Assembly: GCA_045613125.1 (NCBI GenBank)
Contig: JAZLAM010000020.1
Coordinates: forward strand, 4,782-68,781
Direction of reading: 5' to 3'
Length of the DNA stretch: 64,000 nucleotides
Origin: Alphaproteobacteria bacterium
GTDB lineage: Bacteria; Pseudomonadota; Alphaproteobacteria; RF32; CAG-239
Shown: positions 36,763 to 39,700 of the stretch, piece after piece
How positions within the stretch are numbered: the stretch's first letter is position 1
Layout: the number at the start of each line of letters is the position of its first letter
Made by a program: the position numbers and the translations under genes
The notes under the pieces: generated by a model
What the model was told of the DNA's origin: nothing
Databases searched by the model: none
The model's input: the letters and a program-made list of their open reading frames with translations, nothing else

Positions 36763-39700
36763 TTAATTATCTCGACCTATATTGTTTACTTCTATGTTAG
36801 GATTTGTGCGATTTTTGTTTATAATTCTCGCGAATTTTTCAGTATATCCTCTTATCATTTCTATAAGTTTTTTATTGGTTTCAGGAGCACAAATTTGTGT
36901 ATCAAGCTTTGTGGAAACTTGTTGTATGACATTTGGTTTTCTCACCAACATCTTAATCAGCGATTTTTTTACAACGCCCATATCTTCGGTGTTCTGACTT
37001 AAGAACAGATTTAAGCCTTTGGCCAGTTTTGCTCTAAGTATTAAATTGGGATTTTTTTGCTTAAATTGTTCAGATATACCCTTTGCAATGTGTTTATCCA
37101 TATTGCCGGATAATAATGAAGTTTTCACTATCTCATTAATATCTATATGTGCACTTGTTTGAGAAGAACTTATTTGTTTTGCCGTTTTTACGACAGCTGC
37201 AATTTTTTTGCCTAATTGGGTTTGATAATTACCTGTTTTTTGTAAGCTTAAAAATGCTTCGGCCATATCAATTTTTTCACCCTCTCTTCGTTTAGAAATC
37301 ATTAAGTCAAAGGTATCATATAAGAGTTTGCCGAGTTCTTGTCTGTCTTGTTCCGGATAATTATCTTTTTGACCTTGTAAATCTATCGAATTTACAGCTT
37401 CTTTCATAACACCTTTTAAGATTGCTACATCAATATCTTTTTGACCGACAATTTCGCTTACGGTAGGCATAAATTCTTTAGGAATGTTGAACCCTAATGA
37501 CTGATGTGTCGATTCGGATAATTTATCTGAAATAACGCTCAATATAGGCATATTAACACCTTTATCTTGAAGTTGCTGAACTTCATTTTTAATTATTTGA
37601 CCTATATTTTCGGTTCCGTCAACAGATGCAGAAGCATATACATTAAATATAAGGGATCCTAGCGCTTCTTTATCTTTATGCGAAAGCAAAGGTTGTTTAC
37701 TTGCAAAAATACCTATATCTTTAATTCCTTCTTGAACAAAACCTTTTACAATGCTTTTATCAATAGGCATGTCTTTATTATTTATTGCACTATTGATACA
37801 TTCAATAAAATCATTTGCCGATAAGTCTTTATAATAGTCGGTTAGGGCAAGTAAACCTCTTTGACATTCTGTAAGATAAGTGCTGTCAGTTAATTTATCG
37901 GTGTATACACCTTCGATCTCTGAACTTAAAATATTACCGACTTTACCGAAAGCATTTGTGCCGTCGGAAGAATATTCCAATGTTTTTTGTAAAGTTCTAT
38001 ATATCACTCTACCTAACAATTCTTTGTCTTTTTCTGACGGATCCACAATTGCCATTGCTCCGGTATCAAATAAGCCTATCACATTGTTTTGTGTGTCGAT
38101 TTTCATTTGCTTACAGTGACGGTCATGGTCAAAACGAGAGCCAGATAACATATTCATTAATTCTACGGTAAAATATGCTTTTGATAATGCTTTTTTATAT
38201 TGAGGATCTTGTATTTGATCTAAATCTATACCTTGTGCACGCTCTAAATCTGCCCAATTTTTACCATATTCCGGCCAATCAGCAACGTGAAGTTTGAAAG
38301 AATGTCCATCTACATCAATTTGTTTTTCTTTATATAGTTCCTTAGCTGTTTCAAGTTGTGAATAACCAATTTCCAAATTTGTTTCAACTTCAACGGTTTC
38401 TTGTGCTTGTTTAACCAAACGTACAAAACTGTCTATTCCGTTTTTCATCACACCTTTTTGAGCTAAGTCATAAAGCATGTTTTCAAAAATTTTAAATTCT
38501 TTATCAGATGCAATTTTTGCACCGGCTCGTAAAATTTTTGTAACACGGTCACTATCTTGAGGAATTTGTCCGTTTTCAAATTTGCCTTTTTCCAAGGTTA
38601 CAAAATATGAAGCAGAACCGATAATTTTTCCGAGCCATATATCTTGTCCGTAGTTTAATTTATTATCACCATCTTTTTTAGCATAAAAATCAAGCCATTC
38701 ATAAACTTCCCAACGGGAAGGGCGAGATGCATTAGATTTTAGTTCTTGCATTTCATCACGAATAAATTTCGGCACATCAGTATAAGATGCCATGGCTTGA
38801 CCAAGTTTTATTGCGGCAGGACCGGAATTTTCTAAAAACAGTCTGATACCTTTGGCAATGCTTTTTTCAGGATCAGTTGTTGAGCTGTTTTCATTGGCGG
38901 CAACCATCATGGCGGCTAAATATAATGTACGTTCATTTTCTTTACGTGATTTTATGTAAGAGTGTAAAAATTCTGTTCCGATTTTACTCATCTCACTGTC
39001 AGCGTTAGGGAAAATTTTGGGAGCAACTTTTTGGAATATATCTTCCCATCTGTTTTCGCTATTCTTTGAAGAAGCGGAATATAGCAATTCGTTAATCAAA
39101 ACGGCTCTTGCTTCCAAAGGATATCCCCAAAATTCGCGATGTAAAATCTGTAATGTATCAGGAGATACTTTTTTATTTTGTATATCATGAGTTTTGAATA
39201 TTTCACCAAGATGCTCACTATATTCAACACAATTGTGCATTTCTCCTTTTGAAAGTAAAAAGTCTATCAAAGAAGAAGCTTCGCTTTTATCATCTCTCAT
39301 AATTAATTTTATAGCATCAAAACCGGCAATTATCATGCTGTTATCGCTTCTGTTTCCTTCATTCATTTCATCAAAACTTGCAGGTTTGGGTTTTATCATC
39401 ATGGAAAGTTTTTGCTGAGAAACAAACTTATCTGCCAATATCTTTGCAATTTCTATTTTATCGGTCATATTGATGTTTTCAACCGTTTTTCTTGAGCCAT
39501 AATAGTCTTCTTCGTGAGATTCATGAAGCTTGAATAAAAACGGACTTATTTTTTCATGTAATTGAGCCGAATTATCATCAATTTGTTTTCCGCAAGCTTC
39601 AAAAACACTTTCTACCCATAAACGTTGATAAGTTCTTCTGATGTCAGGATCAGATATACGGTTTTCTTTGCTTATGAAAATATCGTAAATTACATTTCTT

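Follow-up and report, generated by a model that had tools for sequence, protein, structure and literature searches.

A very divergent UbiB-like domain at the core of an apparently undescribed family of giant bacterial proteins

The window analysed here is a 64,000-nucleotide stretch of contig JAZLAM010000020.1 (positions 4,782 to 68,781) from an Alphaproteobacteria bacterium (assembly GCA_045613125.1). A first-pass annotation of the window had described positions 38040-38840 as a UbiB-like kinase module with an altered active site. This interval lies in a single open reading frame of 6084 nucleotides on the minus strand (36763-42846), which encodes a protein of 2027 amino acids (aa). Sequence comparison and structural modelling confirm that the flagged region belongs to a genuine, very divergent UbiB/ABC1-type protein-kinase-like domain (aa ~1230-1700). 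A large and apparently undescribed family of giant bacterial proteins, about 1.4-3 thousand aa long, has this domain as its conserved core. The 2027-aa protein contains no signal peptide and no transmembrane segment, its top 19-residue Kyte-Doolittle window being 1.15. It is laid out as follows:

36763..42846, minus strand: whole gene, soluble multi-domain protein of 2027 aa (open reading frame listing)
42097..42759, minus strand: M48-type zinc metalloprotease domain, aa ~30-250 (Pfam, AlphaFold2, Foldseek)
39847..42096, minus strand: middle region, aa 251-1000, fast-evolving, no recognisable domain and no Pfam match
39160..39846, minus strand: pre-kinase helical region, aa 1001-1229, conserved, alignable in 43-121 of 155 relatives
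37747..39159, minus strand: UbiB/ABC1-like protein-kinase-like domain, aa 1230-1700 (TIGR01982, hhalign, AlphaFold2 and Foldseek, substitution rates)
37027..37746, minus strand: C-terminal helical region, aa 1701-1940, inside which two further weak copies of a helical module begin

Pfam ABC1 (PF03109) matches neither the window protein nor the isolated domain, and a PDB search with the single domain sequence and a 12-sequence profile returned no UbiB structure, only chance matches at E>0.1. Direct searches being nearly blind, the homology had to rest on TIGR01982, on hhalign and on fold comparison. The NCBIfam model TIGR01982 (UbiB) matches aa 1306-1607 with an E-value of 5.7e-10, at 38.3 bits against an equivalog cut-off of 487.55. 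Alignment by hhalign of a 156-sequence family profile with E. coli UbiB gave a probability of 95.4% (E 2e-8, score 68.3), a 12-sequence profile gave 67%, and the maximum among 20 shuffled UbiB controls was 1.5%, with a score of 23.9. Pfam ABC1 is found in 6 of 24 full-length relatives at E<=0.01 (best E 1.5e-7), the one score shown, 19.2 bits, being under the 22.9-bit gathering cut-off, and precomputed annotations list it for three of the earliest homologues recovered.

The AlphaFold2 model of aa 1225-1700 (predicted local distance difference test, pLDDT, 79; predicted template-modelling score, pTM, 0.72) has the helical N-terminal extension of UbiB proteins, with eight helices before beta1, and a bilobal kinase-like fold. 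All ten of the best Foldseek matches to this model in the PDB belong to the UbiB family (E 1.3e-7 to 6e-5, target-normalised TM 0.35-0.58), the matches including MSMEG_1954, COQ8A/ADCK3 and Rv3197 (7cyr, 7udq, 4ped, 5i35, 5yjz). RIO kinases are small atypical kinase-fold ATPases; they supply the second-best structural matches, with RIO2 at E 3e-4 and weaker, far below the UbiB structures, and they differ in having no KxGQ or ExD elements. The call of UbiB homology in the first-pass annotation is borne out by all three lines of comparison.

The motif strings on which that call was based are all five found in the one minus-strand reading frame, where they had been placed:

38764-38835, minus strand: LENSGPAAIKLGQAMASYTDVPKF, the KxGQ segment, aa 1338-1361
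38593-38619, minus strand: GSASYFVTL, aa 1410-1418
38521-38544, minus strand: VTKILRAG, aa 1435-1442
38107-38133, minus strand: FDHDRHCKQ, aa 1572-1580
38059-38070, minus strand: FDTG, aa 1593-1596

The E. coli UbiB strings set beside them agree with the ubiB gene of MG1655 (L038), and hhalign returns the same motif-by-motif register with 12 and with 156 sequences. A structure prediction that moved the motifs elsewhere had been named as the result that would overturn this register. In the AlphaFold2 model they stay on the expected elements: GSASY lies in the beta1-beta2 loop (strands E179-187 and E191-198), K1437 in beta3, the catalytic loop after a long alphaE-like helix and the DxG motif after the following strand pair.

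Conservation of the active site was read from an alignment of 156 sequences, made up of the best 150 listed representatives of the family, relatives from a word-indexed search and the window protein, with a median pairwise identity of 30%. The positions of interest are these:

38797..38808, minus strand: KxGQ motif K1347-L-G-Q1350, aligned to IKFGQ of E. coli UbiB; K in 153/156, Q in 152/156
38605..38619, minus strand: Ala-rich-loop equivalent G1410-S-A-S-Y1414; G 150, S 113, A 123, S 146, Y 115 of 156
38536..38538, minus strand: K1437, the beta3 ('VAIK') Lys, aligned to the K of VVIKVIRP; column S 35, K 33, L 22, R 19, A 18, T 12
R1440, after beta3; R in 139/156
38377..38385, minus strand: ExD-motif equivalent E1488-T-N1490; E in 155/156, third position D 101, N 39
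38365..38367, minus strand: G1494, at the alphaC-Glu position (COQ8A E411); column G 90, S 33, A 20 (143/156), non-acidic
38356..38358, minus strand: Q1497, family-invariant Gln one turn past the missing alphaC Glu; Q in 154/156
E1562, in the alphaE-like helix; E in 150/156
38107..38133, minus strand: catalytic loop F-D1573-H-D1575-R-H-C1578-K1579-Q1580, aligned to FHADMHPGN
D1573, in the catalytic loop; D in 154/156
D1575, the catalytic Asp; D in 154/156
R1576, in the catalytic loop; R in 147/156
H1577, in the catalytic loop; H in 154/156
Q1580, the Asn equivalent; Q 137, N 18 of 156
38059..38067, minus strand: DxG motif D1594-T-G1596, with the DFG-equivalent metal-binding Asp; D in 156/156, G in 152/156
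37858..37860, minus strand: R1663 in YLTECQRGLLAL, the probable alphaF Arg/Lys (COQ8A R611); K 87, R 64 of 156

The catalytic Asp and the DxG Asp that had been reported are both present, as D1575 and as D1594, the equivalent of COQ8A D507. The ExD equivalent aligns to E-L-N of E. coli UbiB and corresponds to E405 of COQ8A (PMC4718504). Seven positions (K1347, Q1350, E1488, D1575, Q/N1580, D1594 and R/K1663) are kept together in 146 of the 156 relatives. The domain shares with the UbiB/ABC1/ADCK proteins (E. coli UbiB; COQ8A/ADCK3, 4PED/5I35; Rv3197; MSMEG_1954) the kinase-like fold and helical N-terminal extension, the KxGQ motif, an Ala-rich loop in place of a Gly-rich one, the ExD Glu, the spacing of the catalytic Asp and a carboxamide (D-x4-carboxamide), the DxG Asp and probably the alphaF Arg/Lys. 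Unlike these proteins, it has Gln in place of the catalytic-loop Asn (in COQ8A D488 and N493 form D-x4-N), no alphaC Glu and a beta3 Lys that is unconserved across the family, and it adds the invariant residues D1573, R1576, H1577 and Q1497. Its GSASY aligns to ASASI of E. coli UbiB, and the 'QVH' that follows in UbiB is missing. It also lacks a membrane anchor and any tie to quinone synthesis, and lies within a 2027-aa multi-domain protein. The domain descends from the UbiB/ABC1/ADCK family and would work like it, yet we take it for a new, divergent branch of the UbiB-like group, in a new architecture, and not for a strict member. We do not file it as a strict member because the window protein reaches neither the PF03109 gathering score nor the TIGR01982 cut-off, and because it is without the Lys-Glu pair, the Asn, the membrane anchor and the quinone context.

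Two substitutions in the catalytic loop had been singled out, Gln for Asn and Cys-Lys for Pro-Gly, and together they were expected to decide between an enzyme and a scaffold. The change to Gln is real but is the norm in this family. Asn-bearing members fall into about six groups, some of which have Gln-bearing nearest neighbours at 69% identity; since the two residues interchange between such close relatives, Gln1580 looks like a conservative replacement of the metal-binding carboxamide, not like decay. The Cys-Lys pair is present here but is not a family feature. The column of C1578 is Gly in 130 of 156 sequences and Cys in the window protein only, and among the syntenic orthologues it reads C (nearest strain), G, G, S and S; the K1579 column varies between A, G, N, S and K. 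The 'PG' positions vary in true UbiB proteins also, COQ8A reading QTDPNWSN. The claim that these substitutions decide between enzyme and scaffold is unsupported as it was stated. A functional (e.g. redox) role for Cys1578 was set aside, the residue being limited to the window strain and its nearest relative.

The window gene was compared with five syntenic orthologues (L003-L007) by the ratio of nonsynonymous to synonymous substitution rates (dN/dS). The ratio is 0.02-0.08 in the kinase-like domain, the lowest in the protein, and 0.10-0.18 in the M48 domain, 0.13-0.18 in the pre-kinase region, 0.09-0.18 in the pre-kinase and C-terminal regions together and 0.26-0.52 in the middle region. The kinase-like domain is the most constrained part of an otherwise fast-diverging protein and is under very strong purifying selection. 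The middle region is essentially lineage-specific, being alignable in just 4 of 155 relatives. Across four orthologue genomes the giant protein is 59-65% identical, against 98% for PPDK and 94-97% for RplM and RpsI; it shows the accelerated evolution relative to flanking core genes that is looked for in translocated effectors. The synonymous rate (dS) between the window gene and that of the nearest strain (L003:4278-10412) is 0.06-0.08 over aa 1-1000 and 0.27-0.58 over aa 1001-2027, and this unevenness suggests recombination inside the gene near aa ~1000.

The word-indexed protein search returned just 6-11 relatives and gave a false impression of rarity, which an exhaustive profile search corrected. 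The latter brought the count to 1426 cluster representatives at E<=1e-3, of which 521 also pass E<=1e-30; almost all are 1400-3000 aa long, with the domain far from the N-terminus. The N-terminal heads are interchangeable, and comprise an M48 protease, a SidE-type phosphodiesterase with ankyrin repeats, or an unassigned type. Among 126 long representatives 86 have an M48-like head, eight a SidE-phosphodiesterase-like head and 32 neither. Pfam assigns M48 to 16 of 24 full-length members, SidE_PDE to five (best E 1.3e-54), ankyrin repeats to four and EF-hands to two. Eukaryote-type or known effector domains are absent from the window protein and are found in relatives that carry the same module.

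The third architecture (32 representatives, e.g. P0065, P0084 and P0136) is ~1800-2200 aa long and has the same kinase-like module behind an N-terminal ~1250 aa in which Pfam detects no domain. A soil contig (L039:1-29210) encodes a 3069-aa protein with SidE_PDE, ankyrin and UbiB-like domains near a 3578-aa open reading frame and two more ankyrin proteins; its other neighbours include ZipA, SMC, LigA and a gene resembling the Rickettsia 17-kDa antigen, and its source looks like a host-associated gammaproteobacterium. Two metagenomic relatives have split gene calls, L002:1558-7083 (1414 and 410 aa) and L001:1113-5871 (1055 and 541 aa), the break in L002 falling within the kinase-like domain directly before the catalytic loop. 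These could be pseudogenes, assembly errors or frameshift errors.

Hosts were sought with a DNA pattern for FD[HS]DRHx[GKA]Q, by which the resulting distribution is biased. Matches came from ruminant and human gut bins of Alphaproteobacteria (including 'Proteobacteria bacterium CAG:495') and, more widely, from Micavibrio, four Bdellovibrionota bins and one Rickettsiales bin; the scan found no family member in Legionella genomes. The gut and rumen bins usually have two paralogues per genome. Six bins with two giant-protein loci are L003/L015, L004/L014, L005/L016, L009/L017, L010/L011 and L019/L030. Four of the six combine a close orthologue of the window gene, with 75-99% domain identity, with a second copy that is only 42-44% identical; copies of fuller length have kept both their M48 motif and their kinase-like motifs intact.

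The N-terminal head of the window protein is matched by Pfam Peptidase_M48 (PF01435) with an E-value of 1.6e-13, at 45.9-51.3 bits against a cut-off of 20.3. Its AlphaFold2 model (pLDDT 72.5) has the M48 peptidase 3c37 (E 1e-5) and BepA (6ait/6sar) as leading Foldseek matches. The third zinc ligand of M48 peptidases is supplied by an E-x-x-x-D segment. The motifs of the head are:

42469..42483, minus strand: HELGH zinc-binding/catalytic motif (H122, E123, H126), read from the sequence and kept in relatives
42403..42420, minus strand: EEITSD, aa 143-148, matching the M48 E-x-x-x-D segment and aligned with EREAD of P0161, a protein with tetratricopeptide repeats (TPR) and an M48 domain
42250..42270, minus strand: HPNDESR, aa 193-199, the M48 'HP....R' C-terminal signature, from alignments with relatives

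By its motifs the zinc metalloprotease looks intact. It shares with M48 proteases (BepA, HtpX, Ste24, Oma1; PDB 3C37, 6AIT) the HELGH, EExxxD, AGY and HP....R elements, a score above the Pfam threshold and the M48 fold. It differs from them in lacking a signal peptide, a lipobox, a TPR domain and membrane helices, and in being fused to ~1800 further residues.

At the other end of the protein, a helical module of ~110 aa that ends the kinase-like domain occurs in three weak tandem copies (37027-38031, aa ~1605-1940). The copies start at about aa 1605, at the end of the kinase-like domain, and at 1722 and 1832. The evidence for the repeat is weak and consists of a second hidden Markov model domain, aa 1832-1971 against family positions 462-603, and of a three-way alignment that shares 'D..LG ... 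D..I.KG' (in fuller form 'KDKE.LG..IY ... D..I.KG').

In five related genome bins, those of the orthologues used above, the order PPDK, giant gene, rplM, rpsI is kept as in the window. The giant gene and rplM are ~0.2 kb apart in the window and in all orthologues but that of L006, where ~3.9 kb is inserted between them (10418-14324). The window has a close match in a gut metagenome bin labelled Alphaproteobacteria (JAZRHM01), with the domain 99% and RplM and RpsI 100% identical. No family of the PADLOC defence-protein models matches at E<=0.01. Elsewhere in the window three sizeable open reading frames have no Pfam match, at 8540-12019 (plus strand, 1159 aa), 26806-28368 (plus strand, 520 aa) and 30471-32057 (minus strand, 528 aa). 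Just downstream of rpsI an open reading frame of 205 aa (34898-35515, plus strand) has an apparent N-terminal signal peptide, MKKHILLTTMAMLLSATAINANA, and no Pfam match.

What we say from here on of nucleotide use, chemistry, substrate class and export, and so of function as a whole, we infer from sequences and models. We hold it somewhat more probable than an even chance that the domain is a catalytically competent, nucleotide-using enzyme of the UbiB type. Most likely it would be active as a COQ8-like ATPase, or as a small-molecule/lipid kinase, within a probable effector, and would not be a dead pseudokinase; between enzyme and scaffold, the conservation pattern favours an enzyme. A nucleotide and a divalent metal would be bound through D1594 of the DxG motif and the carboxamide of Q1580, which would replace the usual Asn. 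D1575 would be the catalytic Asp, held by R1663. In COQ8A D488 pairs with R611, and the peptide-binding cleft is occluded by the KxGQ and ExD elements (PMC4718504). The same elements here (K1347, Q1350 and E1488) are predicted to fold over the site as they do in COQ8A. A site covered in this way would suit an ATPase or a small-molecule/lipid kinase instead of a protein kinase, and the domain may accordingly hydrolyse ATP or phosphorylate a small or lipid substrate, not a protein. In COQ8/UbiB proteins ATPase is the only robust activity and is stimulated by cardiolipin and phenols, the Gln of KxGQ holds a water that is a candidate nucleophile, and D507N abolishes nucleotide binding (10.1101/149823).

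The whole protein would most likely be delivered to another cell, host or prey, or else work at a membrane, the protease and the UbiB-like module each having its own activity. What suggests export to such a cell is the modularity of the heads, the effector-type domains in relatives, the fast evolution and the lineages involved. The family shares a giant modular build with translocated effectors of intracellular bacteria, for example the SidE-family effectors and the kinase-fold effectors LegK, MavQ and SidJ of Legionella; in relatives a SidE-type phosphodiesterase, ankyrin repeats or EF-hands precede the same module, and divergence is rapid relative to neighbouring genes. It differs in that the pattern scan placed no member in Legionella. 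A survey of Legionella kinase-like proteins mentions UbiB/ABC1 solely as a non-effector housekeeping kinase (PMC9758233).

A number of observations weigh against an exported, active enzyme, some touching its location and others its active site. The gene neighbours are housekeeping genes, with PPDK upstream, rplM-rpsI downstream and DHFR and ThyA further on. Among the neighbouring window open reading frames scanned there are no secretion genes, and the giant protein has no plasmid or phage matches. One match of the pattern scan is in a bin labelled Planctomicrobium piriforme; Planctomicrobium is a free-living genus. These points would suit an endogenous, non-exported role, for example in envelope, lipid or protein quality control, in which a protease like HtpX or BepA works with a UbiB-like ATPase. 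Such a role is a matter of location and would leave room for an active enzyme; the stable chromosomal position between PPDK and rplM-rpsI in the five related genomes, the lack of a signal peptide and of any link to secretion genes or mobile elements, and the retention of two paralogues per genome across bins speak for it too. The giant protein nonetheless evolves far faster than its neighbours, its modular heads include SidE_PDE, ankyrin and EF-hand domains, and the family is enriched in predatory and host-associated lineages, though here the DNA pattern of the scan biases the distribution. We consider an endogenous role a serious alternative, though on the unlikely side.

At the active site, the loss of the Lys-Glu pair is a larger deviation than that of Asn to Gln, and was overlooked in the first-pass annotation. 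The beta3 Lys is kept in 33 of the 156 relatives, the window protein being among the minority that retain it, and the alphaC-Glu position is non-acidic, its register being given by hhalign and by a spacing of +6 after the ExD Glu, as in E. coli UbiB and COQ8A. COQ8A retains the pair as K358-E411 (PMC4718504). Many would score the absence of the pair as pseudokinase-like. We know of no precedent for Gln replacing the metal-binding Asn, and R1663 is placed opposite the K of LLQKTLL (E. coli UbiB) only in a low-confidence extension of the hhalign alignment. Since the pair is not kept across the family, phosphate positioning must use other invariant residues, for which K1347, R1440, R1576, H1577 and Q1497 are candidates. 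The family-specific invariant residues D1573, R1576, H1577, Q1497 and R1440 probably compensate for the lost pair or define a new substrate site.

The same features could instead belong to a pseudokinase or nucleotide sensor that binds its ligand without turnover, and that acts as a scaffold or an allosteric regulator of the M48 and other heads. With the pair missing family-wide and the Asn replaced, such a module would be in keeping with the long discussion of UbiB proteins as possible pseudokinases and with the preference of COQ8A for ADP (PMC4718504), and the joining of one domain to different enzymatic heads is what might be seen for a regulatory module. At a median identity of 30%, however, the catalytic-type Asp is kept in 154, the carboxamide in 155 and the DxG Asp in all 156 of 156 sequences, which is unusual for scaffolds; extra invariant polar residues (D1573, R1576, H1577) surround the catalytic loop, and the dN/dS of the domain is 0.02-0.08. 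We regard a pseudokinase as rather unlikely.

It is less probable again that the kinase fold carries out a different chemistry, such as AMPylation, glutamylation or another nucleotide-dependent transfer, by analogy with SelO and SidJ. On this account a changed orientation of the nucleotide would lie behind the unusual residues of the site (no Lys-Glu pair, D-x-D-R-H-G-x-Q). In its favour, the phosphate-anchoring pair is lost, and neither E. coli UbiB nor COQ8A has residues that correspond to the family-specific invariant D1573, R1576, H1577 and Q1497. In relatives the module is joined to a SidE-type phosphodiesterase, and repurposed kinase folds have precedents in the literature. There is no direct evidence for such a chemistry, the KxGQ, ExD and probable alphaF Arg/Lys elements that accompany COQ8 ATPase activity are all retained, and the structures matched best are those of UbiB proteins and not of SelO or SidJ.

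Still more improbable is a conventional trans-acting protein kinase effector that would phosphorylate host or prey proteins. A kinase-like fold with a catalytic Asp and DxG, effector-like relatives, and a plant ABC1 protein reported as a Mn2+-dependent protein kinase (PMC8956952) are in its favour, but the KxGQ and ExD elements that block the peptide cleft in COQ8A are near-invariant here, the loop is Ala-rich instead of Gly-rich and the family has no Lys-Glu pair. That the domain is the organism's own UbiB, an accessory factor of ubiquinone biosynthesis, is very improbable and effectively refuted: TIGR01982 is the sole named family that matches, yet it does so at 38.3 vs 487.55 bits, Pfam ABC1 gives no match, a transmembrane anchor is missing, the domain makes up only aa 1230-1700 of 2027, and the window open reading frames scanned include no ubi genes. 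A PI3K/PI4K-like reading, which would set 'DRH..Q' beside the 'DRH..N' loop of those kinases, was dropped, there being no PI3K/PI4K structure among the top 50 fold matches.

Returning to an active UbiB-type enzyme, it can be taken further to a more speculative form, to which we give a low probability. The family would then be a new class of exported enzyme, in which a soluble UbiB-derived ATP-dependent module with a re-wired centre is carried on interchangeable protease or phosphodiesterase heads by predatory and host-associated bacteria, and acts on lipids of the target membrane, e.g. quinone or prenyl lipids. The centre would lack the Lys-Glu pair and combine D-x-D-R-H-G-x-Q with three invariant glutamines, possibly with a chemistry other than plain phosphotransfer. 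Literature searches found nothing relevant on a UbiB-like effector domain, on an M48 and ABC1 fusion, or on RF32-type gut alphaproteobacteria and predation, and we know of no description of the lifestyle of the uncultured mammalian-gut alphaproteobacteria that carry the family.

More interesting than the Cys-Lys pair, on which the earlier emphasis was misplaced, are the absence of the Lys-Glu pair and the modular family of giant proteins. The biochemistry of the UbiB/ABC1/ADCK family is still unresolved despite its ancient origin and its link to human disease (COQ8A ataxia), and membrane anchoring hampers work on it. The giant-protein family is large and soluble, keeps every UbiB-specific element, is naturally without the Lys-Glu pair and has Gln for Asn, and these traits make it a ready-made natural experiment on the residues needed by the UbiB mechanism. 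The occurrence of the same module on M48 or on SidE-phosphodiesterase-ankyrin heads, in gut, predatory and intracellular bacteria, points to an unexplored inter-cellular weapon or manipulation factor.

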